From Limnovirga soli (lineage in GTDB: Bacteria; Bacteroidota; Bacteroidia; Chitinophagales; Chitinophagaceae), in contig NZ_WHPF01000010.1 in the NCBI RefSeq assembly GCF_013106755.1, positions 162,335 through 226,334 on the forward strand: a DNA stretch of 64,000 nucleotides, written 5' to 3'. Both the position numbers and the translations under genes were made by a program. Numbering within the stretch: position 1 is the first letter of the stretch; every line of letters starts with the position of its first letter. Of this stretch, positions 1,742 through 63,899 are shown in pieces. Under the pieces are notes generated by a model. It had not been told where the DNA came from. It saw only the letters and a program-made list of their open reading frames with translations, and made no database searches.

Positions 1742-1959
1742 GGCCAGGCAAAAACACATTTTTCATCGTTCTTTGCGTCGCACTCTTGTACACCTGAAAC
1801 CAGTTGCAACTGAACAGATTTACTGAAAATAAAGGTACCATTTGAAATTAAAATTAACAACCTAACTTGTAATACATTAGAGCCATTTAAAGATGCCCCT
1901 TGTTATGCAGTACAAGTGTGCGACGCAAGTAAAGCTACATTGCGGTTCTTTTGCCGGGC
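1742..1959. repeat. Family-1 intergenic element, full palindromic composite: box GGCCAGGC + core TTGCGTCGCACTCTTGTAC (1773-1791), then a 118-bp spacer, then the reverse-orientation core GTACAAGTGTGCGACGCAAG (1910-1929) + GCCGGGC box (1953-1959)
   Basis: Read directly in the sequence. Lies between the LacI gene start and the GH16 stop. Confidence 0.85.
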
Positions 1960-1987
1960 TCCAAAAAAAGTTGCATTGCTTTCTAAA

Positions 1988-2872
1988 CTAAGGTTCTTGC
2001 TGATAAACCCGCACATAATCTACCTGATAAGTAATTGGGTGTTGCATACCAGATGGATTGCCGCCATTACCACCCATGGCCAGGTTTAGCAATAAATAAT
2101 GCGGTTGCAAAAATGGATTGGTTCCATTATCATTTAGCGTTTCACTTAACATTGTGGTATTTAATAGCACATCATCAATATAAAGATTTATAGCTTCTTT
2201 TGACCAATCCATACGCCATACATGAAACTTATTTGGCCAATCGGCATCATTTGCCAAAAAACGGCTCAGCGGGTGTATTTCTGTATGCCATTTGGCCTTA
2301 AAGCGGGTGGCAGTGCCCCATGCAACATTTGCCAGTATGGCGGGCTGTTGCTGTACACGGTAAAATTCCATTATATCTACCTCGCCGTTATTTGGCCATT
2401 CGCCTTTTGTGCCTAGGGTCCAAATAGCAGGCCAGGCACCTAATGCTGTATCAATTTTTGCACGTACTTCAATGCTACCAAATTGCCATTGGTGCATTGT
2501 TCTTGTTTGTATACTTGCAGATGTATAATTGGCATATTCCCTATTCAGCTTCCAGTCTGCATTACCAGGTTGATAAGCAGGGTTTTTCACCTTCTCCTTT
2601 TTTCCTTGTATTAACAAAACCCCATTTACACAATTGGCATTTTGAGGTTGATACCATTGCAGTTCTTCATTGCGTACAAAGCCAGTTTCATATACCCAGT
2701 TAGTGCTATCAGGCTTGCCATTTATATTAAATTCATCGTGCCAAATTAAATTATACCCGGCCTTTTTTGGGGGACTAGAAAAATCCGGCTGATATGGATT
2801 TGGTTTTTGGCCCACTACAGTTATTGCCATACTTAAGACAATCACATTTAATAGTGCTATTTTTAAAAACAT
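1988..2872 (-). CDS. GH16-family glycoside hydrolase (laminarinase/beta-glucanase-like), secreted
   Basis: Signal peptide MFLKIALLNVIVLSMAITVVG. GH16 catalytic motif E-x-D-x-x-E present in GEVDIMEFY. Confidence 0.85.
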   Translation of the reverse strand: MFLKIALLNVIVLSMAITVVGQKPNPYQPDFSSPPKKAGYNLIWHDEFNINGKPDSTNWVYETGFVRNEELQWYQPQNANCVNGVLLIQGKKEKVKNPAYQPGNADWKLNREYANYTSASIQTRTMHQWQFGSIEVRAKIDTALGAWPAIWTLGTKGEWPNNGEVDIMEFYRVQQQPAILANVAWGTATRFKAKWHTEIHPLSRFLANDADWPNKFHVWRMDWSKEAINLYIDDVLLNTTMLSETLNDNGTNPFLQPHYLLLNLAMGGNGGNPSGMQHPITYQVDYVRVYQQEP

Positions 2873-2961
2873 AAGTTTTGTTTAGTTGATAAAATTAATG
2901 AGGAAATAAAAACACAAGATTGGTTTTCCTGCTGCCTTATGCGAGGAATAAGAATTGTATC

Positions 2962-3006
2962 AGCCAGGTACAAAAGGCATCTGTAGTTGTGTCACTCACT
3001 TGTGCG
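2962..3006 (+). repeat. Family-1 element, variant core GTTGTGTCACTCACTTGTGCG with adjacent GCCAGG...CTGTAG box
   Basis: Direct read. Between the GH16 start and the small ORF at 3029. Confidence 0.7.
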
Positions 3007-3028
3007 TTCAAATCCCTATTCAACAGAA

Positions 3029-3250
3029 TTAAATATCGATAGCCTCTATTATTTCGCCAAGTTCTGCAGCTAATGGTGTTGCCCCTTTATCTGCTTCGTA
3101 CCATTGCCAGGTTTCGTTTACTAATTCTTCTGCAATTATTACCTGCGAAGCAAAATGTATTATAAAATAAATATTGCCGCCATTTATTACCGGAGAAACC
3201 TTTACCTGCCTGCCGGCAAAAGTTATAAAAAAATCTTCCTCATTTGGCAT
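3029..3250 (-). CDS. Small hypothetical protein (73 aa) with weak PqqD/RRE-like similarity
   Basis: ATG at 3250. The stretch LVNETWQWYEA resembles the LNETaaxIWell motif of PqqD-family peptide chaperones. The similarity is weak and unverified. Confidence 0.35.
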   Translation of the reverse strand: MPNEEDFFITFAGRQVKVSPVINGGNIYFIIHFASQVIIAEELVNETWQWYEADKGATPLAAELGEIIEAIDI

Positions 3251-3448
3251 TGTTTAAAGGTAGCTAGAAATTGGGTGTAATAGAATAATGTTCTTAGTGT
3301 ATGGTAATGAATTTATACAAGTTGCCTACAAAATGGCTATTTTTTCCAGCTTATTTAAAATCTTGAAAAATACGAAAGACAAACATTTAGCAATATAGAG
3401 TTAATGTTTATCCCAAAAATTACGCAGCCCGAAAAAAAGTTTAATAAA

Positions 3449-5311
3449 CTACCTATACCCTTTTGCCTGTAGTTGAAATAACTCGGCATAGCGGCCATTT
3501 TGTTGCAGCAATTGTTCATGGCTGCCCAGTTCTATCAACTGCCCTTTTTCCAGCACCAGAATACGGTCGGCCATGCGCACGGTAGAAAAACGGTGTGAAA
3601 TCAATACTGCAGATTTGCCCTTTGTCAGCTCAGCAAAACGTTGAAACACTTCATACTCTGCACGGGCATCCAGCGCACTGGTAGGTTCATCTAATATCAA
3701 TACTTCGGCTTCCTTCATATAGGCGCGGGCCAATGCTACTTTCTGCCATTCACCGCCCGATAATTCTATGCCATCATTAAAACGGCGGCCCAATGCCTGA
3801 TCATATTGATTGGGTAATTTCATGGCCAACAGGTTAGCCAGGCTTTTTTCAGCAGCCTTAATAATTAAAGGGCGGTTATTTTGCTCATCTATATTACCAA
3901 CTGCAATATTTTGCGCAAAGCTCATCTGGTAGCGCAGGTAATCCTGAAAAATAACGCCTATATGTTTGCGCAGTTGCAAAATATCATATTCCTTCAGGTC
4001 TATATCATCCAATAAAATACGGCCCTCTTCAGGATCATATAAACGGGCCAATAGTTTTACCAGCGTGGTTTTGCCGGCTCCGTTCTCCCCTACCAATGCC
4101 AGTTTTTCACCAGCATGTAAGGTAAAACTCAAATAACGGTTGGCCCATTGCTCGCTATTGGCATATCTAAAACCTACATTTTCAAATACAAAACCCTTTT
4201 GTATGGGGTTAGGAAATGGTAGCGGGGTTTTGCTCACTTTTATTTTGGGTTTTATTTCAAAAAAATCAAAGAAATCCCTTAAGTAAATAGCCCCCTGAGA
4301 TACCGTACTAAAACGCGATAATATCCCTTCCAGTAAACTGCGTAACTGACGGAAAGAGCCGGCCAGGAATGTAAGATCACCGATGGACAAAGACCCTTCT
4401 ACCGTTTTTAAAATCATAATAATATAGGCCGCATAATACCCCATACTACCCAATATGGCAAACAAACTACCCCATGCTGCCCTGCGGGTAGAAAGCGATT
4501 TATTATCCGCATAAAACTGCTGACTAAGTGCCTTAAACCGTTTTATCAAAAAGCCTGACAAATCAAAGAGTTTTACTTCTTTGGCAGTCTCGTCGCTGGC
4601 GCCCAGGTAACGCATATAATCCAATTCGCGGCGTTGAGGGGTTTGCCCGCGGGTAAGCGCATAACTTTGATCGTTAAAATAAGATTCGCCCAAAAAAGCA
4701 GGTACAATTGCTATTAGTAATAACAATATCAACCATGGGTTAAAAGCCATTAAGCCCACTGCTAAAAACAACATGGTAATTAAATCCTGCACCTGCGTTA
4801 ATACCTGCGATAATAATACAGTCCGCCCAACGGTTTGCTGGCGGGCACGTTCCAGCTTATCGTAAAAAGCAGAGTCTTCAAACTGGTCAAGGTCCAGGGT
4901 GGCGGCATGTTCCATAATTTTTACAGAAGTATGGTTAGAAAACAAATCGCCCAATAAACCATCAACCAGCGATATGGCCCGGCTTAATGCATCAGATACT
5001 ATTGCCAATACAAACTCAGCTGCCACCAACTGCCACAAATAAGTATGATCTGTATTTGAATCAGGTGTTTTGGCTAACAGTACCACCTGATCAATAATCA
5101 ATTTACCAATATATAAAATAGCCACAGGTACGGCAGATTTGGCAATACGCAAAACAGCATTAATAATAGTGTACCAGCAATTGGTTTGCCAAACCAAAGC
5201 AAAAAAACGGGGCAGGTTACGCAGGGCAGCAAATTTTTCTTTTAAAGTTGGTTGTGGCACCCGGTTGTATAACAGCGGCCTTTTTTCGCGGGCCATTCTT
5301 ACCTTACTCAT
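3449..5311 (-). CDS. ABC exporter with fused N-terminal permease and C-terminal ATPase (MsbA-like)
   Basis: Walker A GENGAGKTT, ABC signature LSGGEWQKVALARA, Walker B ILDEPTSALD, and multiple N-terminal TM helices. The track start at 5329 is TTG; the first in-frame ATG is at 5311 (MSKVRMAREK). Confidence 0.9.
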   Translation of the reverse strand: MSKVRMAREKRPLLYNRVPQPTLKEKFAALRNLPRFFALVWQTNCWYTIINAVLRIAKSAVPVAILYIGKLIIDQVVLLAKTPDSNTDHTYLWQLVAAEFVLAIVSDALSRAISLVDGLLGDLFSNHTSVKIMEHAATLDLDQFEDSAFYDKLERARQQTVGRTVLLSQVLTQVQDLITMLFLAVGLMAFNPWLILLLLIAIVPAFLGESYFNDQSYALTRGQTPQRRELDYMRYLGASDETAKEVKLFDLSGFLIKRFKALSQQFYADNKSLSTRRAAWGSLFAILGSMGYYAAYIIMILKTVEGSLSIGDLTFLAGSFRQLRSLLEGILSRFSTVSQGAIYLRDFFDFFEIKPKIKVSKTPLPFPNPIQKGFVFENVGFRYANSEQWANRYLSFTLHAGEKLALVGENGAGKTTLVKLLARLYDPEEGRILLDDIDLKEYDILQLRKHIGVIFQDYLRYQMSFAQNIAVGNIDEQNNRPLIIKAAEKSLANLLAMKLPNQYDQALGRRFNDGIELSGGEWQKVALARAYMKEAEVLILDEPTSALDARAEYEVFQRFAELTKGKSAVLISHRFSTVRMADRILVLEKGQLIELGSHEQLLQQNGRYAELFQLQAKGYR

Positions 5312-5442: not shown

Positions 5443-5664
5443 GTTACAGTGAAATTAAAAAGATTAGTGTTTTTTTAATTGGTGCATGTTTTTTAAATCA
5501 AATGTTTTGCTATATCTTGCCACCAGTTTTTTAAGGGTTTAGGGTTGAAAAAAGGGGTTATGGTTCTCCACTACCCCTCTTTTTTTGTCTATACCTCAAC
5601 CACAACAATAGTTTCCCCGCTTTTTTCATTTATTTTTTTTCATTTATGTACCCGACTGTATAAT

Positions 5665-5698
5665 GTAATGCATCGCCTGTTGCGTCGCACTCTTGTAC
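5665..5698 (+). repeat. Family-1 half element (GCATCGCC-TG-TTGCGTCGCACTCTTGTAC)
   Basis: Direct read. Core at 5680-5698. Confidence 0.8.
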
Positions 5699-5773
5699 GT
5701 TCAGTTAATATTTCAGCTTTAATTTTTTGTTTAAATAGAAATACAACCCCGCATAATTTGGGTATTTGTTTTA

Positions 5774-5823
5774 GCCGCCACAAAGGTGGAACCCCGAACC
5801 GAGCGTGGCAAGCGGTGATGCCA
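5774..5823 (+). repeat. Family-2 element GCCGCCACAAAGGTGGAACCCCGAACCGAGCGTGGCAAG followed by TGGCA-N7-TGCCA hairpin
   Basis: Direct read. Five related copies in the window. Overlapping six-frame ORFs carry a conserved ..NRAWQAVMP.. peptide, which is a translation artifact of the repeat. Confidence 0.8.
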
Positions 5824-5896
5824 TTTATGCAACAGCCGGTTACCCAATAAAAAAAGCCCCGTACCATGTACAGGGCTTTTATAATAGTGATTTTTT

Positions 5897-9393: not shown

Positions 9394-9689
9394 ACAGTTA
9401 AAAACAAACCAGTGCAAAAGGGCTTAATTATACTGCCGATTCGGGATTCAAAAAATTAGGTCTGGAGGACAAATTTGCATACATATTGTGTCATTTCCGC
9501 ATTGTAATTTCTTATTAGTTTATTAAAATTATCCGGCAAAACCCTTTAGAAAATAGCGTTATTTGGCTTCATGCAGGTATCTTACCACAATTACCATGAT
9601 AAATTATAAGACACGAAGAATTCTACGATGAAGGCCTTTAATAAATATTTTGAAGTAGTTCTTCAGAAAAAGCTGCGCAATGCGTTAGA

Positions 9690-9721
9690 GTACAAGTGAG
9701 TGACACAACCAGGCCTGATAG
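9690..9721 (-). repeat. Family-1 element, variant core GTACAAGTGAGTGACACAAC + box CAGGCCTGATAG
   Basis: Direct read inside the 800-bp AT-rich intergenic region. Confidence 0.75.
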
Positions 9722-10037
9722 TAAACAAACTGCCCGATATCTAAAAACTTGAGTTTACATATTTGTTTAATCTATAACATTTTTGTCCACAACATTGCTC
9801 CACATAAAATCAACCAGCTTTAAAAACTTTTGAATTGGATTATACCAGATGCGCAAGGAATAATGGGTTTCAAGGCCTATAAATGGTTATTGTATTATTG
9901 AAAACTGCCTTAATTTTTTATAATCTGCAATAGAATTGATTAATATTTTTTTTATAACAAGCGCATTTGAAAATGACCGTATTAAAAAAAGATTATTTTT
10001 AAAAGGATTACCTGTTTGCTATATAACACACATCCCA

Positions 10038-13311: not shown

Positions 13312-13494
13312 TAAAGCAATTTAAAGCAGTTAAAAAATATACCTCACTACAAAAACTGCAAAGCCCATTGAATGCAGTTTACCCTTTCAATAATTAAATA
13401 TAAAATTTAGCTTTCATAAAAACTGCCAGAAGGTTATTTTTTTAAACAACAATAAAAATTGTTGCCCAACCATGGGTAATTCTGTTCAACAACT

Positions 13495-13514
13495 GTTGTG
13501 TCACTCACTTGTAC
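13495..13514 (+). repeat. Family-1 variant core only (GTTGTGTCACTCACTTGTAC)
   Basis: Direct read. Confidence 0.7.
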
Positions 13515-13602
13515 TTCAGGATACTTTATGCAGCCATATCCATTTCGCATTGGTATTAGTTTATGCAACAGCATAAATACAACGAATCTCTTCTTAAAGG
13601 TT

Positions 13603-14034: not shown

Positions 14035-14151
14035 TTTTTTGCTTTAAAAGTCTGTGTATTTAGAGGACTTGACTATACCCATCACCGCGTATTTTTTGAA
14101 AAGCATAATAAAAAATATGGCTTAAATTGATAATAATGCGACTGCTGTTTT

Positions 14152-14202
14152 GCCGCCATAAAAGAGGAACCCTGAACCGAGCGTGGCAAGCGGTGATGCC
14201 AT
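14152..14202 (+). repeat. Family-2 element (GCCGCCATAAAAGAGGAACCCTGAACCGAGCGTGGCAAGCGGTGATGCCA)
   Basis: Direct read. Confidence 0.8.
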
Positions 14203-14254
14203 GGTTAACCAAAGCTGGTTTCAAAAAAAATAATAAGAATGTTTTTGTGCTTTA

Positions 14255-16974: not shown

Positions 16975-17024
16975 TGGGGTATGGATATTTTGTTGATGTG
17001 TATTTGCTGCATAACATTGTTGCC

Positions 17025-17083
17025 GTACAAGAGTGCGACGCAAGGATGCTGCCAAAGTGTACCATTGCCGGGCTACAAAAATT
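17025..17083 (-). repeat. Family-1 element (core GTACAAGAGTGCGACGCAAG 17025-17044, box GCCGGGC 17077-17083) abutting the pdxA stop codon
   Basis: Direct read. Confidence 0.85.
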
Positions 17084-18182: not shown

Positions 18183-18314
18183 TCCGTTAGATTTATTGGT
18201 AAAAATACGGATTATAGTGAAGTATGCACCAGTAAATGCAAGTTATAGGGCTAAATGCGGGTAGCAACTAGTTTTAGTAAATATTTGTATTAACCCGGCA
18301 GTGGATATTTTATG

Positions 18315-18495
18315 GCATCGCCGCTTGCGTCGCACTCTTGTACTTTTGGTTATAGCATGGGCCAAATGGCCGGCGGCTGATAATTTATTAAATGGTTTTG
18401 CAGTTAATGCTATTGGCTGTTAAATGCCGCACCTAATTACTACAGTAAAAGTGAGCGACGCAAGTAAAGCATCAATTCAATTACATTGCCGGGCC
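18315..18495. repeat. Family-1 full palindromic composite (forward core 18325-18343; degenerate reverse core 18445-18464; GCCGGGC 18488-18494)
   Basis: Direct read. Lies between the pdxA start and the stop of the large GH gene. Confidence 0.8.
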
Positions 18496-18515
18496 CAAAA
18501 AACAAATGGGTTTAT

Positions 18516-22789: not shown

Positions 22790-22880
22790 AATGTGTTTTT
22801 TGTTGTTAACTGATAGATAACGTTCACCCTATTAAAAAAGTACAAATAACCTGTTGTTTTATGTTGCAAATGGGTTTGCA

Positions 22881-22927
22881 GTACAAGTGTGCGACGCAAG
22901 CATGCCGATAGCGCCTTGCTGCCGGGT
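22881..22927 (-). repeat. Family-1 element (core 22881-22900, box GCCGGGT 22921-22927)
   Basis: Direct read. Confidence 0.85.
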
Positions 22928-22940
22928 ACATAATGCCAAA

Positions 22941-23885: not shown

Positions 23886-23989
23886 TGCGTTTAATTCTAA
23901 GTGGTAAAAATAAAGGTTATCTGTAAAACCTAACAATAATTAGTTATGGATATTTATTAGTTAGAAAACAAGGAAAATTAAATTAGTTA

Positions 23990-24039
23990 GCCGGGCAGCA
24001 GATGCTATATGAGGCTTTACTTGCGTCGCACTCTTGTAC
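23990..24039 (+). repeat. Family-1 element (box GCCGGGCAGCAG; core TTGCGTCGCACTCTTGTAC 24021-24039)
   Basis: Direct read. Confidence 0.85.
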
Positions 24040-24131
24040 TGCAAATCAATAGTCAACAATACTGATGGTCTGTAATTAATCAGGAGTAAAACAGGAGGTA
24101 AAAGCCATCCATAAAAGATGGGGCCTTGCAG

Positions 24132-25604: not shown

Positions 25605-25693
25605 ATCCTGACAAAAAATTTCTATTTGGCAAAAGTAAAGATTTAAAAGACTGTTTAAAAATTCAATTTCCACATACCAGCTATCATTTTTAT

Positions 25694-25726
25694 GGCAGCA
25701 TCCTTGCGTCGCAATCACTTTATCAG
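25694..25726 (+). repeat. Family-1 degenerate/truncated copy (GGCAGCATCCTTGCGTCGCAATCACTTTATCA; same subtype as the copy at 38409-38471)
   Basis: Direct read. Confidence 0.6.
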
Positions 25727-25878
25727 CAAATCATTTGGCAACTCTGGCCTCCGGTACAAAGGGCTTTGTAAAAAATACACCTGTTTCATGCATTTTTTAT
25801 CAACTGCTAATTTCAAAACATAAAAATGGCTGCCATTAGACAATGGCAGCCAATGCACATGAGAAATATTCAAAATGT

Positions 25879-27082: not shown

Positions 27083-27364
27083 ATGAATAAACAACCTTCA
27101 CTGGTATTTTGCCTTTTAATGGATTTGCTTGGCAGTATTACCTATATCATTCCAGGTATTGGTGAAACGGCCGATATTATTTGGGCACCTATATCGGGTT
27201 ATCTGTTTTATAAAACTTTTGGTGGGCGTAAAGCAGCTATTGGTGGCCTGTTTAACTTTGCAGAAGAACTGCTGCTGTTTACCGATATCATTCCCAGCTT
27301 TACCATTATGTGGCTTATACAGCGCTTTTATGCCAATAAGCCATTACCAATTTTGCCGCTATGA
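27083..27364 (+). CDS. Small membrane protein, hypothetical
   Basis: 93 aa with two hydrophobic helices. Its stop codon and last codons lie inside a family-2 repeat copy. Confidence 0.45.
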   Translation: MNKQPSLVFCLLMDLLGSITYIIPGIGETADIIWAPISGYLFYKTFGGRKAAIGGLFNFAEELLLFTDIIPSFTIMWLIQRFYANKPLPILPL

Positions 27365-27393
27365 AAGCGGAACCCTGAACCGAGCGTGGCAAG
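27355..27393 (+). repeat. Family-2 element (GCCGCTATGAAAGCGGAACCCTGAACCGAGCGTGGCAAG); supplies the stop codon of the small membrane-protein gene
   Basis: Direct read. Confidence 0.75.
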
Positions 27394-27512
27394 CAAAGTT
27401 CCTTTTTATTCTACAGTTTAGTCCCAAAAAACAAATAACCAAAAGACAAAAAGCTTTAAAATAATTACCCAATTTTATTTTTACCAATTTGGGGTAATTA
27501 TTATATTTATAC

Positions 27513-29606: not shown

Positions 29607-29646
29607 AAAAGGCAGCAGGTTATTTTGTAACAGTACAAAAATTAGG

Positions 29647-29696
29647 TGCCCGGCAACAGAATCAAATAGCAGCATTCTTGCGTCGCACACTTGTAC
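29647..29696 (+). repeat. Family-1 element (box TGCCCGGCAACAG; core TTGCGTCGCACACTTGTAC 29678-29696) between the ComEC stop and the purH start
   Basis: Direct read. Confidence 0.85.
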
Positions 29697-29762
29697 GTTC
29701 TGATTAAGTATCAGCAACACAGTACCCAATTTGCCAATAAAACAGTATCAATCATCATTGCC

Positions 29763-32284: not shown

Positions 32285-32340
32285 TCTGTATTTATTTCTG
32301 TTATTTTTTTTTGTTACCAGCCAATAATCAATATGCAGCT

Positions 32341-32384
32341 TTACTTGCCACGCTCGGTTCAGGGTTCCTCCTTTGTGGCAGCTG
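32341..32384 (-). repeat. Family-2 element, reverse orientation (CTTGCCACGCTCGGTTCAGGGTTCCTCCTTTGTGGCAGC)
   Basis: Direct read. Confidence 0.8.
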
Positions 32385-32466
32385 ATAATATGTTGGTGTA
32401 TATTTTTTACTCTTTGCTAGATCCAGGTTATGGGTCCAAAATACCTTGTTGAAGTATATCCCAAAC

Positions 32467-32515
32467 GAACAAGAGTGCGACGCAAGCGGCGATGATAGCA
32501 TTGGTATAGCCGGGC
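32467..32515 (-). repeat. Family-1 element (core GAACAAGAGTGCGACGCAAG; box AGCCGGGC 32508-32515) abutting the stop of the gene at 32515
   Basis: Direct read. Confidence 0.8.
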
Positions 32516-33843
32516 TAATGATACTTTTTTACACGCGGAAAATTATTCAAAATAAAAAGGCGGTACATTTCTCTCCAATCTTGCCATTCCTTTTGCTCAG
32601 TTAAAAAATGATTGTGAAAAATGGTAATCAGTGTGCCGCCTGTGGCTTTTGTGATATCATGGTAATATTGTAATTCTTTGGCGGCAGTCTCGGCGGTATA
32701 ATGCTGTTCAAAAAAAGAGTTGGCCTCCATATAGCAAAAAGGGTGAATTAACAATGGTGTGGCCATGTTTGCTGCAAGATTAAACCAGTAAAAAGGTGTG
32801 GCAACCGAAGCCCTGAAACCATTGATGCTGCCATATCCCATAGAATAATCGTGCTGAATTCCTGCTTGTAAAAGCTGACTATACGTTTCAGGGAGATTCA
32901 TTTTAATATAGTGCTGTCTGCTATGGGTTACTGGCTTCCCTGTTATGCTTTGTAATAACGAAATTTCTTGCTGTACAACCGCATGGCTATTATTGCTTTG
33001 CCAGGAAGGGTGAATGCCGGTTATATATTTTTTGTGCAGCCAGCGTATTAACTGCTGCATGTATTTATTGTTAGGAGAAATGTTTTTATCGTAGGCTTTT
33101 CTTTTTTGGGCCAATAAAAAAAAGTATACCGGATGCAGGTTGCATATTTCGTGCATAGCATCCATAAAATCATAATTTACAAAGGGGTCTTTCATGCCCA
33201 TTAATAGTACCCCGGCTCTCTCCAATACCTTGTTTATACGGCCGGTGAAAAGATCCTTAATAAATCCCCCAATATTTTGAATTAGCGGTTTATGTAAATA
33301 GCAATAGGCAATATCAATATCGTAAGTGGGCAAAAATTTAAAATCTGGTTTTGGAATGCGTATTAATGGCTGTTGTTGCTGCAGCATTGCGATGGTGGCT
33401 GCCACCCATTGGTTTACCAGCGGTGCCTGTAGAAAATTATGTTGATATGCCAGACTATTGGTATGCGCATAACGGCCATAAGCATCCTGCTGATTGGGCA
33501 GGTATTCTTCATAGCGGCTAACAAGGTAAAAGCTGGCTGCCAGCAAATCAAATGGCAGGTGGCCATTAGTACCAAAAAAAACCGGCATGCCTTTCCATTG
33601 CGTTACCAGAATTTGTTGCTGCGCTATATCCTCCTGTTCCAATAAACCGTGGGGTTGTATCCACAGTTCCAGACTGCAAACGGGCGCCGCGGTATAATTT
33701 ATTTTAAAACAATGGGTGGTATTTATAAATGCTGCTTTATCCTTTGTGCATTGTACCGTTAAACCGCCAATAGTACCAAACAGCAGTGCTGTGGTATATT
33801 CTATTCGGCTGGTGATATGGGGAGTATAAATTAGCAGTTTCAT
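32515..33843 (-). CDS. Polysaccharide deacetylase-like family protein (tentative)
   Basis: N-terminal MKLLIYTPHITSRIEYT, a PTYDIDIA (DxD-like) segment and a GIHPSWQSN segment resemble NodB-like deacetylase-family proteins of Bacteroidota. Recalled from memory and not verified. Confidence 0.45.
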   Translation of the reverse strand: MKLLIYTPHITSRIEYTTALLFGTIGGLTVQCTKDKAAFINTTHCFKINYTAAPVCSLELWIQPHGLLEQEDIAQQQILVTQWKGMPVFFGTNGHLPFDLLAASFYLVSRYEEYLPNQQDAYGRYAHTNSLAYQHNFLQAPLVNQWVAATIAMLQQQQPLIRIPKPDFKFLPTYDIDIAYCYLHKPLIQNIGGFIKDLFTGRINKVLERAGVLLMGMKDPFVNYDFMDAMHEICNLHPVYFFLLAQKRKAYDKNISPNNKYMQQLIRWLHKKYITGIHPSWQSNNSHAVVQQEISLLQSITGKPVTHSRQHYIKMNLPETYSQLLQAGIQHDYSMGYGSINGFRASVATPFYWFNLAANMATPLLIHPFCYMEANSFFEQHYTAETAAKELQYYHDITKATGGTLITIFHNHFLTEQKEWQDWREMYRLFILNNFPRVKKYH

Positions 33844-33922
33844 ACGCACAAGGGCACTATAAGCTATCTGAATTTGATGATGATTGTTTTGCTGCAACCT
33901 TTAGCTGCATAAAGAACCAACC

Positions 33923-33970
33923 GTACAAGTGAGTGACACAACGGAAGCTTATACTTGATATACAGCCTGC
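33923..33970 (-). repeat. Family-1 variant-core element (GTACAAGTGAGTGACACAAC + TACAGCCTGC box)
   Basis: Direct read. Confidence 0.75.
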
Positions 33971-33982
33971 TTAATAAAAGCA

Positions 33983-37002: not shown

Positions 37003-37033
37003 CCAAGGTGATGGAAGGTTTGGCATTTTTTTG

Positions 37034-37083
37034 GGCCAGGCAATAGATTCAATTGCGGCTTTACTTGCGTCGCACACTTGTAC
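37034..37083 (+). repeat. Family-1 element (GGCCAGGCAATAG ... CTTTACTTGCGTCGCACACTTGTAC)
   Basis: Direct read. Confidence 0.85.
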
Positions 37084-37184
37084 GGCGGGATGATTGGGCA
37101 GCTTTTATACAGCCGGGGAATAGCAGATTGTTTTAAACATGTTTTTAAATAACAGTAGCAGGTGCTCATCTCCTGCTATTGTTA

Positions 37185-38165: not shown

Positions 38166-38408
38166 GGTTAGCGGTGTATTTGATGATTAGGTGGTGTTGA
38201 TTGAAGATAACACATGTTGTTTTAAAAAATTCCCAAATTCTGCCAATAGCCTAAATGAAAAGGATAATTCAGGAATTGCCTGCGCACAATTACAATAGCA
38301 AAATCCTTTTACTTTTCACCTAACGGGATGGCAATTTTACCATTCAACAAAGTATTTTACTTTTTAAGCAAGGGTTTTCCGCGAATTTGTATATTTAATT
38401 AAGATGCC

Positions 38409-38471
38409 ACAAGTACAGGTGATGAAGTGATTGCGACGCAAGGATGCTGCCACTAGTGCATTAGCCGGTAT
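38409..38471 (-). repeat. Family-1 degenerate copy with insertion (..GTGATGAAGTGATTGCGACGCAAGGATGCTGCC...AGCCGGT)
   Basis: Direct read. Confidence 0.6.
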
Positions 38472-38532
38472 TTACCTTAGCATTATTTGATTTTTATACC
38501 TATTTTTTATTTCACCATTTGAATTGTATACT

Positions 38533-40044: not shown

Positions 40045-40085
40045 AAAACCAATTATTATAGTTGTTGCATTAAACTATTTTTTGA

Positions 40086-40260
40086 GCCCGGCACTTGAAT
40101 TTCTATTGGGCTTAACTTGCGTCGCACACTTGTACGGTTGGATTTATTCTTAAACAGTGTAATACTATCTTTGCAGCGAGTAAGTCTCATTGCTGCATAA
40201 AGTATCTATCAGCACAAGTGTGCGACGCAACGGATGTTTAATGCTTTATAAAAGCCGGGC
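40086..40260. repeat. Family-1 full palindromic composite (GCCCGGC 40086-40092; forward core 40117-40135; reverse core 40212-40230; GCCGGGC 40254-40260) between the convergent esterase and A2M genes
   Basis: Direct read. Confidence 0.85.
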
Positions 40261-40280
40261 TAATAATTTTCCTTTTGTAT

Positions 40281-46400: not shown

Positions 46401-46503
46401 GAACCGGTGTTTGATGATACAAAATAAACAATTAATCTACAGATGCAGGAATAACTATTTTACATATTGACTATGGTTTGTTAAATCTTTTACCAGCAGG
46501 TGT

Positions 46504-46706
46504 TACCGGCTGTATATTATTGTGCAGCTGCTGTTGTGTCACTCACTTGTACGTTTATAACAATAGGCAACATTAGTAACAACACTTTTATTGATTGTAT
46601 CATACTTTAAACAGGCATTTGGGTTAATACCTACAGCCCGGTTTAAATACAGCAGTACAAGTGTGCGACGCAAGTAAAGCCTCATATACATTCATTTGCC
46701 TGGCCC
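46504..46706. repeat. Family-1 full composite (box ACCGGCTGTAT; variant core 46533-46552; reverse core 46655-46674; box GCCTGGCCC 46698-46706)
   Basis: Direct read. Confidence 0.8.
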
Positions 46707-46787
46707 ATAAAAATGCAAAAGGGCCGCGGAGAACCACAGCCCGTAATGCACAAACGAGAAATATTCCAGGTTGACTAATCAACTATA

Positions 46788-49275: not shown

Positions 49276-49400
49276 AAGCTGTATTTCTTGGTCTGTGCAT
49301 TGAAAGTACACCTGTTATACGTTGCAGCATTTTTAAAGTTACAGGGTAGGCAAAATATTTCTACAATTGGCCTTATTCATTTTTATACCTCTTTTATTAG

Positions 49401-49449
49401 CCCTGCAATATCATTTCATAGCATCGCCGCTTGCGTCGCACTCTTGTAC
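49401..49449 (+). repeat. Family-1 element (degenerate box GCCCTGCAATAT; core 49431-49449)
   Basis: Direct read. Confidence 0.8.
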
Positions 49450-49625
49450 TTATGGGGCAATGGTCGGCAAGGCAATGCTATAGCTATTAAAAAAGGGGCA
49501 ATAAACTACAAATCTGGTCTGTTTTTGCCTTTTTAGCCCCAAAATCATCATTCTTTAACGGCAATACTGGCATTACTTAAAAAAAAAATAACTAAACCAG
49601 CAATTGCAAACTTTGAAATACCTAA

Positions 49626-51522: not shown

Positions 51523-51564
51523 TGTAGTTATGTGTGGACTTTTATAAATGTAACTTTTTTATGA

Positions 51565-51780
51565 GCCAGGCTAATGGCCTGCAAACCAGGCTTTACTTGC
51601 GTCGCACTCTTGTACGGCAGCAAATGGGGCAACAAAGATTTTACCCACTGTTTATGGCTTTACAAATGGATTGGCACCTGTATTTGAAATAATCAATACC
51701 CAAAAAAAAACTGCTGCCTGTGGGTATAAACGTACAAGTGAGTGACACAACGGATGCATCATGCTTATTCTACAGCCGGC
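51565..51780. repeat. Family-1 full composite (forward core 51597-51615; variant reverse core 51732-51751; box CTACAGCCGGC 51770-51780) between the atpC terminator and the ruvB stop
   Basis: Direct read. Confidence 0.8.
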
Positions 51781-51789
51781 TACCCACAA

Positions 51790-54824: not shown

Positions 54825-54840
54825 CAAAACAATATTATAT

Positions 54841-54889
54841 GCCCGGCTGTAGTACAGTCATGCAGCATCCTTGCGTCGCACACTTGTAC
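54841..54889 (+). repeat. Family-1 element (GCCCGGCTGTAG ... TTGCGTCGCACACTTGTAC) between the NmrA-like and MDR genes
   Basis: Direct read. Confidence 0.85.
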
Positions 54890-54933
54890 TGCACCAAATA
54901 AATGCAGCAAAAACAACAATAAGCAGCAACACA

Positions 54934-55854: not shown

Positions 55855-55910
55855 GCACAGGCATAATTGCAGTAATAAACTCACGCATTCTTTGCTTAGC
55901 TATTGATGCA

Positions 55911-55970
55911 GTACAAGTGTGCGACGCAAGTATGCCCAATAGTACTGCCTTAGCCCGGCTAATAATTTTA
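55911..55970 (-). repeat. Family-1 element (core 55911-55930; GCCCGGC 55963-55969) between the MDR gene and the F420-type reductase gene
   Basis: Direct read. Confidence 0.85.
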
Positions 55971-58088: not shown

Positions 58089-58123
58089 AAAGAGCATTGA
58101 TTTTTTCAATGCTCTTTTTATAT
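58089..58123 (+). terminator. Rho-independent terminator after the thioredoxin-like gene
   Basis: Perfect 12-bp stem AAAGAGCATTGA / TCAATGCTCTTT, loop TTTTTT, trailing TTTTA. Confidence 0.7.
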
Positions 58124-58172
58124 ACCCGGCAATAGTATTGTTATTAGGCATACTTGCGTCGCACACTTGTAC
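58124..58172 (+). repeat. Family-1 element (ACCCGGCAATAG ... TTGCGTCGCACACTTGTAC) between the thioredoxin-like and AKR genes
   Basis: Direct read. Confidence 0.85.
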
Positions 58173-58281
58173 TGCAACAAAACATGCAGCTATAAACAGC
58201 CGATTGCAGTTTACAACAAACAATACAGTAACAAAGGCAATCTTTTTAATAGCGTAAGTTTGCAACAATAAAAACACAACT

Positions 58282-59938: not shown

Positions 59939-59939
59939 T

Positions 59940-59985
59940 GCCGCCACAAAGGAGGAACCCTGAACCGAGCGTGGCAAGTAAAGCC
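59940..59985 (+). repeat. Family-2 element (GCCGCCACAAAGGAGGAACCCTGAACCGAGCGTGGCAAGTAAAGC) abutting the stop of the small ORF
   Basis: Direct read. Confidence 0.8.
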
Positions 59986-60009
59986 TGATATTTATTCTAC
60001 TGTTGGTAA

Positions 60010-60048
60010 CATAAAAAAAGAGCCGTTATTTACTAACGACTCTTTCTG
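60010..60048 (-). terminator. Candidate terminator after the flotillin-like gene (minus strand)
   Basis: On the minus strand: stem AAAGAGTCG...CGGCTCTTT (one mismatch) followed by TTTTTTTAT. Confidence 0.5.
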
Positions 60049-60063: not shown

Positions 60064-61986
60064 TTAATTAGCATTGGGCGTGCTGTCTGTATTCTTTTTA
60101 TCCTGCAACATTTGCAATAACTGCAAACCCATAAGACCACTTAAAGAACCATCAGATCCATTGTTACCGCTTACAATTAAATCGGGTATAATTTTAATAT
60201 TACCCTTACCAATTTCTTCGGTAATCTTAAACTTGGTAAAGTTATCGCCACCCATTGCACGTACCTGCAATTCGTAGGCTTCGGCGGTAGACTTACCAAT
60301 GGCCATAATTTTCTCTGCTTCGGCCAAACCGGTTTTAGCAATTTGTTCAGCTTGTGCGCTGGCATTTAGTTTTGTAGCATCGGCTTGTGCACCGGCCCTT
60401 GCACGGGTAGCTTCTGCCTCGGCACTGGCACGCATTTTTGTGGCTTCTGCTTCGGCGTTTACATTTAGTTTTAAACTGGTGGCATCACCTTCTGCTTTTT
60501 TAACAGTAGCATCGGCAGTGCGTTGTGCAATTTCTACGCTTTGCTGTGCTTTTACTATTTCTTTCTGCATATCGGCAATAGCGGTTTCCTTTTCCATACC
60601 CTGGCGTTTTTCCTGCGCCATTCTTTGGGTTTCGTAGGTTTTTTCTTCTTCCTGGGCAATCTTCCTGTTGGTTAAGGTTTTCATTAATGCTTCAGGAGGC
60701 ACTATGTCGCCAATAAGCGTGTCAACCGCGTTTACGTTATAATCATCCAATACTGCTTTAATATGCTCTTTAGCAGCAGTCTGACGCTCTTTACGGGTGG
60801 TTAAGAAACTAATTACATCGCTGTCCTGTGCACTATTACGGAAATAGTTACCAATAGTAGGTTCCAATACCTGCGATACCAGGTTACCCATACTACCAAA
60901 ACGGGCAATCACTTTTGGTGCTTCGTTGGCGGGTATATGTATAATCTGCGCTACATCCAGGTTAAAAGGGAAACCGTCTTTTGAACGCACGGTAATGGTA
61001 GACAGATTTTTATCCAGGTTATGCGATTCACTTCTGGCATTGGCCCAGTTTAATACCAGGTTGGTGGTAGGCACCAGTTCTACCTTCATGGTATATTTAT
61101 TAATGGGGTATTTACCGGGGCCCAGGGGCTCCATCCATACACCACGGAAACCTTTACTTACAATATTACCGTGTTTAAAACTATCGCCGGTTACGTCCAC
61201 CCCATCTTCACCAATATAACTGATTACTACGCCTACGTGGCCAATAGGTACATCGGTCATGGGGTTTTCTTCAATTTGTACTGCCCATGGGTTTATATAA
61301 TAGCTACCGGCCAATATAACCTGTGGTTGTAAACCACGGCAACCGCCATTGTTCATAAAAGTGTCGATATCCTGGAAGTTATTGTGCCCGTCTACATTAT
61401 TACCGGCAATTTTACCTTGAGGAATGGGCTGACCATCCAGTGATGTAATGATACCCACCATGTTTTCATTAATAATGATTTGGTCGGCAATGGTTACATC
61501 AAATAAAAAGCTGTTGATACGGTAAGAACCGGCGGTAATATAAGCGGTTTGTCTACCACGCTGGCCGCCATTATCCAGGAATTTTTGCGCATCCTGATAA
61601 TTATCGCTGTCAACCTTACGTGCCAGAATTCTACCGGTAGGTATTTCTGCACCATCCTTACTAAGTACCAGTCCAATCTTGCCTTCGGGTATTACAGTAA
61701 AGGGTATCATGTCTACCCCATACTGCCAAGGCCACATACCCCAGTACAAACCCGGCGCAAGTGTTTTAGCTTGAAAACCCGCTTCACCCTTAGTAGCAAT
61801 AATACGTCCATCAGGTAATTCGCGGTTAGCACCAAATAACACGAATTTTTTGGTGGCCAATCCAATTCTGTTCTCTGGTACTATTACCATACCAAAGAAA
61901 ACACGCAGAATAAACTTGTAAAACAATAAGAATAATAATACAATAAAAATCCACCAATAGGAGGATAAAATGCCTGAAATGTCCAT
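60064..61986 (-). CDS. SPFH/band-7 (flotillin-like) membrane protein with C-terminal coiled-coil repeats
   Basis: N-terminal TM helix (ILSSYWWIFIVLLFLLFY). Extended SPFH region. C-terminal 11-residue Ala/Glu-rich periodic repeats (EATKMRASAEAEATRARAGAQADATKL). Confidence 0.75.
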   Translation of the reverse strand: MDISGILSSYWWIFIVLLFLLFYKFILRVFFGMVIVPENRIGLATKKFVLFGANRELPDGRIIATKGEAGFQAKTLAPGLYWGMWPWQYGVDMIPFTVIPEGKIGLVLSKDGAEIPTGRILARKVDSDNYQDAQKFLDNGGQRGRQTAYITAGSYRINSFLFDVTIADQIIINENMVGIITSLDGQPIPQGKIAGNNVDGHNNFQDIDTFMNNGGCRGLQPQVILAGSYYINPWAVQIEENPMTDVPIGHVGVVISYIGEDGVDVTGDSFKHGNIVSKGFRGVWMEPLGPGKYPINKYTMKVELVPTTNLVLNWANARSESHNLDKNLSTITVRSKDGFPFNLDVAQIIHIPANEAPKVIARFGSMGNLVSQVLEPTIGNYFRNSAQDSDVISFLTTRKERQTAAKEHIKAVLDDYNVNAVDTLIGDIVPPEALMKTLTNRKIAQEEEKTYETQRMAQEKRQGMEKETAIADMQKEIVKAQQSVEIAQRTADATVKKAEGDATSLKLNVNAEAEATKMRASAEAEATRARAGAQADATKLNASAQAEQIAKTGLAEAEKIMAIGKSTAEAYELQVRAMGGDNFTKFKITEEIGKGNIKIIPDLIVSGNNGSDGSLSGLMGLQLLQMLQDKKNTDSTPNAN

Positions 61987-62150
61987 AGTTGTTTTGTTTA
62001 ATGGTTGTTGAAATAAATGTTGGTTGTTATTGGCTTTTATTAGAAAGTTGTTGCTTTTAAGTGGCTGTATATTTTATCAGCCAAGCTACTAAATACGCCA
62101 GCTTCCGCAAAATGCCAATAATATGTTGCTGTTAAATGTGTATAAATTGT

Positions 62151-62333
62151 TTACCATAAAAGTGGATGAATTAGCATCTCGGCAATACTGTTACCCATAC
62201 CACTGGCAGGTGCAGGTATTTTTTTATGTTGTTTATGCGAAACAGTGGTGATAACAGCTGCATGGCTGTTATGGTGCAACAGCGCATACATTGTTATTGC
62301 TGCCAGTATAATCACCAATAATATTGGTTTCAT
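62151..62333 (-). CDS. Small secreted/membrane His-rich peptide (60 aa), hypothetical
   Basis: Signal-like N-terminus MKPILLVIILAAITMYALL followed by HHNSHAAVITTVSHKQHKK. Only 164 bp upstream of the flotillin-like gene. Weak gene call. Confidence 0.3.
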   Translation of the reverse strand: MKPILLVIILAAITMYALLHHNSHAAVITTVSHKQHKKIPAPASGMGNSIAEMLIHPLLW

Positions 62334-62731
62334 GTTGTTGTTTAATTACAGTTGGTGTAGGGGCATACTGGTAAGGTAAAGGCAACAGTACAATATACTG
62401 ATTAGCCAATTTTACAATATGCCCAAACGAAAAATGCAAAAAAGAATGCTGAAATAATTACCGGAAAAAGTTCTGCTGTTTAAGTGCGGAAATTTATCTG
62501 CGGGGTGGTTTAACTCTTTGCCTGCAACGTGCCAAGAGAAACTCGAGTATGTGGTTCATAACTGGTGGAGACTGGCTCCTGTTTGTTTTGGAATTGTAAA
62601 GATACTATCAACGGCAGGGATTAACGAAGATAATCCATGACCAATGGGACTGGCGGTTTCACCAATGGTAAAGTATGCTTGATGAGTGGTAACCGGAAAC
62701 AAATAAGTGTACCTGTAAGTATATAAACAAC

Positions 62732-63802
62732 TTATCTATCGGCCAATACCCTTTTAAACCGCTGTACATCTGCCAGGGGATTAATAGGCAACTGGTGTAA
62801 TAAGTGCTGGGTAAGTTCATGGGCAAAAAATGGTGCCAGCGAACAACCCTTGGTACCCATACCATTTAAAATGCCCAATAATGGCTGGTGCGGATGCAGT
62901 CCCACAAAAGGCCGGCGCTCAATATTGGCGGGCCGCTCAGCAGCCAAATGATCGGTAATGGTATAAGGTATGCGCAGCCAATAGTTTAATTGCTCTTCCA
63001 CCTTTTTTCTAAAAGCGACGGTAGGCAAAACATCTTCATAATCCCATACATAGTTCGATCCTATCCAGAAAAGTCCATCCTTCCATGGAACAATGGTGAT
63101 GCCTTGCTTATACAATTGGGTACGGGGTAAACCGGGTATATCTGCAATAATGGCTTCGCCTTTGGTGCGTACATAGGGCAATTTATTAAACCAGGGCAGG
63201 TTAAAGCCGGCAACCCCATCGCAACAAATTATTTTAGCGGCGCTAAAATCCTTATACTGCACTTCTTCTGCTGCGGTATTAAAAACCAGCTCCCCATGGT
63301 TAAATGTTTCTTCCAGTAAAAGCTGGTGTTGTTGCAAATACAATCTCCAATTGGCCAGCATGGCTTGCAGGTGCAATATCAATGCAGGTTGTATTTTGCC
63401 AATGCCATAATTGTATCTAAAAAAGTGTTGCCAGCTGGCATCTTCCTCCTTATCGGGCAGGTGCAAATAGGTGGGTTCCTGTGGCAGCCGCTCAGCAAAA
63501 GCCTGTTGCATTTGGGGTGTTGGGTGAAAATCCAATATGCTGCTTTCCTCTACCAGCGTGGTGTTTATCTGCTGCCCCAATTGTGTATAAGCGTCTATAG
63601 CAAAAGGCAACAAATCTTCAATCATCCAGGTACGTACAATGCGGCGACCGGTAACGGGATTAATAATACCACTGGCCACCTTGGTAGCGGTAAAGGGCTG
63701 TGGCGCATCTATCACCAGAACAGATTTGCCGGCTTTTAATAAGTTCCAGCTTAAAAATGTACCGCAAAGGCCCTGACCAACAATAATATAATCTACCCGC
63801 AT
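62732..63802 (-). CDS. FAD-dependent oxidoreductase (DAO/MnmC-C-terminal-like)
   Basis: Dinucleotide-binding N-terminus MRVDYIIVGQGLCGTFLSWNLLKAGKSVLVID. Confidence 0.75.
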   Translation of the reverse strand: MRVDYIIVGQGLCGTFLSWNLLKAGKSVLVIDAPQPFTATKVASGIINPVTGRRIVRTWMIEDLLPFAIDAYTQLGQQINTTLVEESSILDFHPTPQMQQAFAERLPQEPTYLHLPDKEEDASWQHFFRYNYGIGKIQPALILHLQAMLANWRLYLQQHQLLLEETFNHGELVFNTAAEEVQYKDFSAAKIICCDGVAGFNLPWFNKLPYVRTKGEAIIADIPGLPRTQLYKQGITIVPWKDGLFWIGSNYVWDYEDVLPTVAFRKKVEEQLNYWLRIPYTITDHLAAERPANIERRPFVGLHPHQPLLGILNGMGTKGCSLAPFFAHELTQHLLHQLPINPLADVQRFKRVLADR

Positions 63803-63850
63803 GCTGCAAAGAAACTACAGCCAGCCGAGGCAACAAAAAACTAATTATTG

Positions 63851-63899
63851 GCCCGGCAGTAGCGCCAGTGGCAACTTTACTTGCGTCGCACTATTGTAC
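63851..63899 (+). repeat. Family-1 element (GCCCGGCAGTAG ... CTTTACTTGCGTCGCACTATTGTAC)
   Basis: Direct read. Confidence 0.85.

Follow-up and report, generated by a model that had tools for sequence, protein, structure and literature searches.

A directional intergenic repeat of about 80 bp in Limnovirga soli, other Chitinophagaceae and their phages

The stretch of DNA analysed here, referred to as the window, comprises 64,000 nucleotides of the Limnovirga soli chromosome (Chitinophagaceae; contig NZ_WHPF01000010.1, positions 162,335 to 226,334; 39.7% G+C) and carries ordinary chromosomal genes such as pdxA, purH, comEC, an ispE-like gene, atpD, ruvB, a gene for an extracytoplasmic function (ECF) sigma factor, and genes for dehydrogenases and transporters. 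The gaps between these genes are occupied by a short repeat whose 20-nt core (CTTGCGTCGCACWCTTGTAC) has 20 matches in the window at up to three mismatches, compared with 0.01 expected from shuffled sequences, and 26 matches at up to five mismatches. A discrete second core allele (GTTGTGTCACTCACTTGTAC) is found in six of these 26 copies. Searching with a profile built from 269 distinct copies, drawn from 111 loci of other genomes as well as the window (loci outside the window bear the prefix L below), revealed seven additional elements that share the A/T tract, box and spacer of the core-bearing copies (type 1) and differ in their right-hand module, bringing the total in the 64-kb window to approximately 33. 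Five of the seven carry the type 2 module (CTTGCCACGCTCGGTTCAGGGTTCC..GTGGCRGC) and two the type 3 module (CTTGCGTCGCAATCACTTYATCA), both of the same length as the other right modules. Type 2 is almost confined to the genome of the window, with no exact and four diverged matches in the 111 other loci. By our own count, 21 of the 26 window gaps longer than 100 nt (approximately 80%) contain at least one element.

A preliminary description of this DNA had reported a hyper-abundant, strictly intergenic element of about 50 bp in 28 copies, present in nearly every intergenic gap and divisible into subtypes. Its abundance and its occupation of most gaps are borne out by the counts above, and the intergenic placement also holds, as the copies overlap solely open reading frames (ORFs) called from TTG or GTG starts or small, probably spurious ORFs. 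The subtypes are likewise real, being apparent as subfamilies, mosaic structure and turnover at orthologous sites. The copy number, however, rises to about 33 once the other right modules are included, and the unit measures about 80 bp and extends to a conserved right end (TATTSARC or GCARC) at +31 to +38. In addition, the GC box as first given (GCCCGGCARTAG) was over-specified, having only seven matches at up to one mismatch, and is better written (G)CCNGGC, whereas the spacer ending in GCTTTA does occur but is one among many spacer subtypes.

Across the 269 copies, the unit is directional and consists of an A6T7 tract, a GCCNGGC box, a spacer with a fixed length of 19-20 nt, the core, about 11 nt of variable sequence and the right end TATTSARC. 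Counting from the first core base as position 0, the run of A followed by the run of T lies at about -45 to -32, and, of the 180 copies in which a box can be recognised, 147 have G or A followed by (G)CCNGGC beginning at -29 or -28. The spacer is constant in length and falls into many sequence subtypes, often containing ...ACTATTnAGC..., while the core spans 0 to +19 and is followed, after the variable nucleotides, by the right end at +31 to +38 (GCARC in the window), beyond which the information content is zero. The centres of two dyads, GCC-N-GGC in the box and TGCG-T-CGCA in the core, are separated by 32-33 bp, or about three helical turns. The sole covariation in the element involves core positions 4 and 8 (C-G in 230 copies, T-A in 36, 99% paired), which sit within the 9-nt dyad TGCGTCGCA, and both core alleles retain this dyad by compensatory change.

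The preliminary description distinguished half and full palindromic forms, but a single copy is neither a palindrome nor a hairpin. Folding of six single units gave nothing better than shuffled sequences (z from -2.1 to +0.6), RNAalifold yielded no consensus structure for the 269 copies on either strand, and mutual information revealed no RNA structure beyond the one pair in the core dyad. A transcript-stabilising or terminating hairpin, which had also been suggested, is thereby excluded for single copies, which make up two-thirds of the total; paired copies do fold well. The tags that accompany repetitive extragenic palindrome (REP) stems were also sought: CGTC occurs within the core, and some copies of the window have (G/A)TAG after the box, but neither flanks a stem, and because the unit has no stem they are not regarded as REP tags. 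Three further candidate identities were rejected. A coding role of the type 3 copies, which contain a possible start codon, was dismissed after inspection by eye since the reading frames are inconsistent between loci; a tRNA-like origin was dismissed because ARAGORN returned nothing, including no tRNA gene in the window; and a resemblance to boxA (CTCTT..AC) is restricted to the W=T allele.

Copies of the element are strongly constrained in their relative orientation. All five inverted pairs recognised previously in the window were recovered, with core starts at 1772+/1910-, 18324+/18445-, 40116+/40212-, 46533+/46655- and 51596+/51732-. Among neighbours less than 400 bp apart, 45 are convergent, with their core sides facing each other, one is divergent and none is tandem, and orientation still alternates at spacings of 0.4-4 kb (98 versus 19). 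Pairs are always inverted and enclose 24-380 bp, and approximately one-third of all copies belong to them. The two arms of such a doublet can pair into a long hairpin, folding core-on-core and box-on-box with z = -5.6 as DNA and -2.3 as RNA relative to shuffles. Alignment detected no homology among the interiors of the five window pairs, ruling most of them out as copies of one MITE (a miniature transposable element with inverted repeats) with a common interior, and over a larger set similarity between interiors was found in 17 of 1,275 comparisons, with one subfamily sharing a 53-nt interior as the exception.

The repeat is restricted to part of the Chitinophagaceae and its phages. The exact 20-mer is present in many members of this family, in at least 111 stretches, and 252 copies with up to three mismatches were found in 778 kb of flanking sequence from other genomes. 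Among the matches listed, high densities occur in the metagenome-assembled genomes (MAGs) UBA4407, Co_metawrap_2476 and GL140_2_metabat_114, in Foetidibacter luteolus and in Segetibacter sp. RYN_294, and one match each in Hydrotalea, Terrimonas, Niabella, Segetibacter koreensis and others. The comparison with related genomes for which the preliminary description had called therefore indicates a lineage-restricted element that is patchy within the family. No previous description of a Chitinophagaceae repeat of this kind was found in Rfam, in plasmid and GenBank phage collections (zero matches to the element) or in the literature searched by sequence and by taxon, in agreement with the earlier remark that the consensus matched no described repeat family. 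At gathering scores, Rfam has no family in the window, and a search of two element-rich stretches against Rfam 15 at E values up to 10 produced just weak hits far below gathering scores.

Turnover of the element at orthologous sites was followed in 80 metagenome loci located through their pdxA gene. Of the ten loci in which pdxA shares at least 79% identity with the window gene, nine carry the element, compared with four of the remaining 70; the other 66 lack it. In L120 and L122, the gap between pdxA and the epimerase gene measures 36 nt and contains no element, and the elements that occupy the gap after pdxA in the window and in L112-L119 differ in subtype and have unrelated spacers. A decayed core with an internal deletion lies in the gap upstream of pdxA in L112, and a second palindromic insertion is nested in the spacer of an element in L113. 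Elsewhere, certain positions are conserved over long distances between genomes (window position 32467 in L013 and 24020 in L082), and other orthologous gaps differ (L045 versus L096). The insert in L113 is about 85 nt long and AT-rich (gatgatatggtaatttgatgatgtg...cattatcaaattaccatatcatc), lies approximately 20-105 nt past pdxA (about 1895-1980 of the locus) between the box and core of an otherwise intact element, and looks like a member of a second small mobile repeat family. In the related metagenome contigs L116-L119, low-complexity GTGAAAATGTG or GATGAT repeats about 60-100 nt in length lie between the pdxA stop codon and the element.

Comparison of copies within and between genomes revealed a mosaic organisation. 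Within one genome, cores are 84-99% identical, spacers 33-41% and unrelated flanks 27-29%, with the exception of seven Foetidibacter copies, whose spacers reach 52%. A few pairs of copies, including some from different genomes, have spacers that are 86-100% identical, and in these the identity spans the box to the last core base while the flanks are unrelated. The doublet with the 53-nt interior, composed of GTCGAC/GTTGAC repeats, was found in two UBA4407 loci and in phage contigs, with cores and interior kept and with different spacers and boxes; its occurrence in both a MAG and phages hints at what may be the phage host. Conservation of core and interior next to different spacers indicates that the core is the junction at which left and right modules come together in new combinations, in a manner resembling the mosaics of bacterial interspersed mosaic elements (BIMEs) and neisserial intergenic mosaic elements (NIMEs). 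In two phage contigs (L198 and L206), blocks are 93-98% identical and the interior is identical at 53 of 53 positions, yet the two differ by a patch of three allelic positions within one core, which we read as gene conversion from another copy. Moreover, the strains represented by L118 and L119, which are 98.5% identical, diverge exactly after the box. No 5'-truncated copies, as expected of a retroposition-like process, were observed. Many copies in GL140_2_metabat_114 and Co_metawrap_2476, and those at L047:5333-5460 and L104:2340-2466, are often followed by a conserved module (GCTTTTAYCGAAGCG...), and the composite of one element and GCTTTTAYCGAAGCG forms a 187-bp repeat at 85% identity.

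The core was also detected in 15 stretches of IMG/VR contigs. One of these (L194, UViG_3300020047_016721) derives from a temperate myophage with genes for a terminase, portal, head protease/major head protein, tail sheath and integrase, in which one copy fills the 70-nt gap between the portal gene and the next gene and another follows a tail-region gene. An empty site was sought through relatives of the portal gene, but the search returned only the same contig. Either the repeat may spread into resident phages, or phages may make use of a signal that belongs to the host. Between L206 and L198, a segment of about 2 kb is replaced and a 349-bp insertion or deletion is present.

The placement of the element relative to genes is not random in polarity. 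In 151 of 278 copies, the A/T end lies just past a stop codon, in the sense orientation of that gene (median distance 26 nt), in 98 it lies beside a start codon and the copy points away (median 77 nt), and 12 copies fall inside called ORFs. The orientation of single copies in tandem gene gaps is nearly even (62 versus 50). Conservation of the A/T tract and box does not differ between copies at gene starts and copies at gene stops, which argues against a signal acting solely in the 3' untranslated region (UTR), and element subtype is not associated with gene-end class. A canonical hairpin immediately precedes the T-run in 22-29% of the copies located after stop codons, compared with 3-9% of start-side copies. 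Terminators consisting of a hairpin and a T-run are present at 21% of gene ends with an element and at 31% of those without, and the element therefore does not clearly replace terminators. A scan of window positions 1-20000 with the terminator consensus likewise showed no enrichment, and the element was rejected as an intrinsic terminator because its T-run precedes the GC box with no stem before it in the unit, a hairpin lying upstream in just 21-29% of after-stop copies. In Bacteroidota housekeeping promoters, TTTG lies at -33 and TAnnTTTG at -7, with a spacing of 19-21 nt. TAnnTTTG has no fixed place on the A/T side, and on the core side it is found at +15 to +19 in 10 of 264 copies, too near the TTG of the core for that spacing. 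Inspection by eye also led to rejection of the sigma-54 arrangement (TGGCA-N6-TTGC), which fits few copies only.

Taken together, we favour, tentatively and at a probability of about 0.42, the interpretation that the element is a non-autonomous, mosaic, dispersed repeat, selfish or domesticated, resembling BIMEs and REP doublets forming hairpins (REPINs). It is ranked first because it best accounts for the patchy phylogeny, subfamilies, mosaicism, decay, nested insertions and a REP-like rule of dimer orientation. A transposase or recombinase encoded elsewhere in the genome would recognise the two dyad motifs and use them for crossover, and the head-to-head doublet would be at least one spreading form, with many single copies representing half-elements or recombination products. 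Frequent gene conversion among copies could keep the core near-invariant while spacers drift, the A/T end, being outermost in the doublet, would face the flanking genes, and effects on neighbours such as 3'-end formation or insulation would be secondary. Several observations nevertheless weigh against this interpretation. The apparent conservation of the core is inflated, since copies from beyond the window were gathered by means of that same core. Pfam scans of 40 window ORFs, a set that excludes the 2,039-aa ORF at 40281-46400(-), contained no transposase or recombinase that could drive the spread, in line with the preliminary description, and, in the approximately 1.5 Mb of loci covered, convergent copies spaced by 0.4-3.5 kb enclose no recurring gene; a cargo or transposase there was rejected, as the ORFs are unrelated and several look housekeeping-like (e.g., purH). 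No direct repeat marks the element boundaries, although the near-palindromic A6T7 tract could hide a target-site duplication, and the window contains no empty target motif (T-run, about 11 nt, TATTSARC). Most pair interiors are unrelated and partner arms resemble each other no more than random copies do (0.38 versus 0.36, values that also led us to reject arms as recent twins), and the doublet is therefore not demonstrably the general unit of spread. Single copies in tandem gaps have their A/T end about 22 nt from the stop codon and their core side 60-90 nt from one; the phage, whose genome is compact, carries the element at host-like density (4 copies in 14.5 kb), with terL bracketed by one copy on each side whose A/T and box ends are directed towards the gene; and between accA and dapA the core has been preserved in Hydrotalea as well as a second genus despite diverged flanks. 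Stop-codon abutment, fixed geometry, phage density and long-term site retention are not explained by selfish spread alone, and the placement of the A/T end, the phage density and terL arrangement, and the accA-dapA retention fit a selected host function as well or better. Such a function could be that of a host gene-boundary signal read as duplex DNA, an explanation that ranks second and is somewhat unlikely. A sequence-specific protein would bind box and core on one helix face beside the bent A6T7 tract. RNA polymerase departing from a gene on either strand would encounter first the T-tract and next this protein; there it would stall, its rU:dA hybrid being weak, and let go of the transcript. 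The outcome would be hairpin-independent roadblock termination or insulation analogous to that at Reb1/TTF-I terminators, which serve RNA polymerase I, and selection would have kept copies that a copying process had dispersed long ago. The strict polarity with the A/T end towards the gene, T-runs that start at a median of 22-26 nt past stop codons and often touch them, the fixed motif spacing, the absence of RNA structure, and an A/T tract and box that are alike at the 5' and 3' sides of genes, suggesting reading as DNA rather than RNA, are all consistent with this model, as are the scarcity of canonical terminators (at just 20-30% or so of gene ends in these genomes), the phage copies directly after terL, the portal gene and the tail-region gene, and the core kept at accA-dapA. 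However, sister lineages do without the element, orthologous gaps can be empty, canonical terminators are hardly rarer where it is present (21% versus 31%), and a full terminator lies directly upstream in 22-29% of cases. Phage copies are located inside a presumed single late operon, where one adjoins the start codon that follows, 40% of copies are beside gene starts and point away, where a benefit is not evident, and the binding protein is hypothetical. It is improbable that the element is the standard gene-boundary mark of the lineage, bracketing genes at both ends, adopted by phages and read as duplex DNA by a dedicated protein. As the history of REP elements illustrates, the dispersed-repeat and gene-boundary interpretations are not mutually exclusive.

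Three other explanations have lower probabilities. An element acting at the RNA level, as a 3'-UTR or intercistronic target of an RNA-binding protein, RNase or small RNA, with doublets as RNase III substrates, would agree with the 151 of 249 classified copies that lie just past a stop codon in sense, with the sense, intercistronic copies of phages and with the long hairpins of doublets. The remaining 98 of the 249 are antisense to the nearest gene and equally conserved, conserved structure and structural covariation are absent, and Rfam gave nothing even at E up to 10, making this explanation quite improbable. Less probable again is that the units are sites of a site-specific recombinase, with the core dyad as the crossover and the pairs as invertible or exchangeable intergenic cassettes comparable to the invertible promoters of Bacteroidota, pdif sites and NIME modules. 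Under this model, the preservation of core dyad symmetry by both alleles, the invariable inversion of pairs, the reassortment of left and right modules about the core and the strain junction at the box (L118/L119) would be expected, but at about five pairs per 64 kb a genome would have hundreds of such invertible segments, two-thirds of copies are unpaired, and the one doublet shared by related phage contigs, with its identical interior, has the same orientation in both. Pair interiors are also not enriched in the Bacteroidota promoter consensus, and no recombinase gene is located nearby in the window. Finally, although a number of start codons (those of purH, dapA, a phage gene and the gene that follows pdxA) have a suitably oriented copy 30-90 nt upstream and the length of about 80 bp resembles the footprint of RNA polymerase, a housekeeping or alternative sigma promoter for the gene downstream of the core is highly unlikely, as roughly one in two single copies, and all pairs, are directed into gene 3' ends or each other, the TTTG / TAnnTTTG arrangement is not at a fixed place, and few copies fit the sigma-54 spacing.

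Table 1. Elements of the window (window coordinates) and doublets with the 53-nt interior in other loci
Feature	Position	Strand	Core or right module	Context
Type 1, left arm of pair 1	1734..1811	+	core 1772-1791	A/T end faces start of LacI-family gene 459-1523(-)
Type 1, right arm of pair 1	1890..1967	-	core 1910-1929	abuts stop of GH16 gene 1988-2872(-)
Type 1, variant core allele	2948..3025	+	core 2986-3005	
Type 1	5641..5718	+	core 5679-5698	convergent with type 2 at 5773-5850
Type 2	5773..5850	-	right module 5788-5812	directly after canonical terminator hairpin 5880-5852 of gene 5897-9313(-)
Type 1, variant core	9670..9747	-	core 9690-9709	
Type 1, variant core	13457..13534	+	core 13495-13514	
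Type 2	14151..14228	-	right module 14166-14190	after stop of gene 14255-15409(-)
Type 1	17005..17082	-	core 17025-17044	T-run begins at pdxA stop codon; orthologous gap empty in L120, L122
Type 1, arm of pair 2	18286..18363	+	core 18324-18343	pdxA start side
Type 1, arm of pair 2	18425..18502	-	core 18445-18464	after stop of gene 18516-21848(-)
Type 1	22861..22938	-	core 22881-22900	after stop of epimerase gene 22941-23936(-)
Type 1	23982..24059	+	core 24020-24039	adjoins start of 22941-23936(-); same-place copy in Segetibacter locus L082
Type 3	25665..25742	+	right module CTTGCGTCGCAATCACTTTATCA, 25703-25725	
Type 2	27354..27431	-	right module 27369-27393	
Type 1	29639..29716	+	core 29677-29696	gap from comEC stop to purH start, ATG about 72 nt past core
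Type 2	32306..32383	+	right module 32344-32368	convergent with 32447-32524
Type 1	32447..32524	-	core 32467-32486	copy at syntenic place in locus L013
Type 1, variant core	33903..33980	-	core 33923-33942	fills gap of two tandem genes
Type 1	37026..37103	+	core 37064-37083	after stop of gene 36262-37002(+)
Type 3	38403..38480	-	right module 38420-38442	
Type 1, arm of pair 3	40078..40155	+	core 40116-40135	pair between convergent genes
Type 1, arm of pair 3	40192..40269	-	core 40212-40231	
Type 1, variant core, arm of pair 4	46495..46572	+	core 46533-46552	
Type 1, arm of pair 4	46635..46712	-	core 46655-46674	strong hairpin precedes
Type 1	49392..49469	+	core 49430-49449	divergent gap, ECF sigma gene / atpD
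Type 1, arm of pair 5	51558..51635	+	core 51596-51615	
Type 1, variant core, arm of pair 5	51712..51789	-	core 51732-51751	abuts ruvB stop
Type 1	54832..54909	+	core 54870-54889	after stop of gene 53943-54824(+)
Type 1	55891..55968	-	core 55911-55930	adjoins start of gene 55999-56646(+)
Type 1	58115..58192	+	core 58153-58172	directly after terminator-like hairpin of gene 57450-58082(+)
Type 2	59939..60016	-	right module 59954-59978	after hairpin and T-run 3' of gene 60064-61986(-)
Type 1	63842..63919	+	core 63880-63899	adjoins start of gene 62732-63802(-)
53-nt-interior doublet	L019:526-618			
53-nt-interior doublet	L019:6005-6097			
53-nt-interior doublet	L198:11958-12050			
53-nt-interior doublet	L206:6361-6453			

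Several ORFs of the window called from TTG or GTG starts extend upstream into elements (16102-17055, 29691-31280, 54871-55854, 38524-40044 and 25008-25718), and their true starts probably lie further downstream, as with the purH ATG near 29769. The few long gaps that lack both an element and an ORF of 70 aa or more are located at 21848-22148, 35978-36262, 59301-59639 and 61986-62732, the last being the largest element-free gap (746 bp) and having no Rfam match. Pfam matches at E up to 1e-5 are absent from the ORFs 18516-21848(-), 47689-48747(-), 22148-22789(-) and 13603-14034(-), one of which encodes 1,110 aa.

A repeat that fills about 80% of the larger gaps in a Bacteroidota lineage provides an independent case for the spread and persistence of bacterial repeats, unusual in having no unit hairpin, and it points to a sequence-specific DNA enzyme or binding protein in Chitinophagaceae. 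The copies are recombination breakpoints, probably also breakpoints of metagenome assembly, and possible lineage markers. They can also mislead start-codon calling, as in the over-extended ORFs of the window, and automatic annotation may be affected likewise. If the gene-boundary interpretation were true, the element would represent a hairpin-independent means of ending or insulating bacterial transcription and a counterpart of eukaryotic roadblock terminators and insulators.

Among known systems, REP, BIME, REPIN and Correia elements are best known from Proteobacteria, where they shape mRNA stability, termination, supercoiling and rearrangement and have domesticated transposases. Correia elements of Neisseria have been described as RNase III substrates. 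Like MITEs such as the Correia elements and the pneumococcal repeat unit RUP, the doublets measure 175-220 bp, have long imperfect terminal inverted repeats, are intergenic and contain no transposase, and copies of at least one doublet subfamily, which is also present in phage, share their interior. They differ in that a target-site duplication was not seen, most interiors are unrelated and most copies are single ends; a parent insertion sequence with these ends was not found. In Neisseria, copies of dRS3, a 20-bp palindrome (ATTCCC-N8-GGGAAT), flank the variable RS modules of NIMEs. As in BIMEs and NIMEs, a short conserved repeat separates variable modules in differing combinations and its orientation alternates along the chromosome, but this repeat is neither a REP hairpin nor a dRS3 palindrome, and a gap holds one or two copies rather than an array. 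Roadblock terminators of RNA polymerase I have a T-rich release element upstream of a Reb1/TTF-I site. The likeness to them concerns layout only, namely a bipartite site of protein size that comes after a T-tract and has strict polarity relative to the transcribed gene; they belong to another domain of life, and the copies described here also lie beside gene starts and their protein is hypothetical. The pairs recall invertons in that inverted repeats enclose a short intergenic segment, and the one phage doublet compared had the same orientation.

The closest likeness is to REP elements and REPINs. A REP unit is an imperfect palindrome of 20-40 bp that folds into a stem-loop, and REPs and REPINs, for example those of E. 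coli and Pseudomonas, respectively, are mobilised by a REP-associated tyrosine transposase (RAYT), a Y1 transposase of the IS200/IS605 type whose gene the repeats flank. The REP unit carries an unpaired GTAG or CGTC tag at one end of its stem, and head-to-head dimers predominate in REP families while head-to-tail ones are negligible (PMC3733652). The Chitinophagaceae unit, by contrast, is about 80 bp long and directional, with neither a stem-loop nor a terminal tag, the partner arms of its doublets are dissimilar, and no RAYT was found in the DNA examined (the window and the segments between convergent copies in about 1.5 Mb of loci). The REP/BIME- or MITE-like character suggested in the preliminary description consequently holds for the numerous, extragenic, lineage-restricted and head-to-head arrangement of the copies, but not for the unit, which forms no hairpin, nor in the sense of a classical MITE. 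Collectively, the element falls outside the definitions of REP and MITE, but it works like REP, BIME and REPIN sequences, being extragenic and lineage-specific, present in hundreds to thousands of copies and several subfamilies per genome, often located just downstream of stop codons, and organised as singlets and as head-to-head doublets able to form a long hairpin, with head-to-tail arrangements essentially absent.

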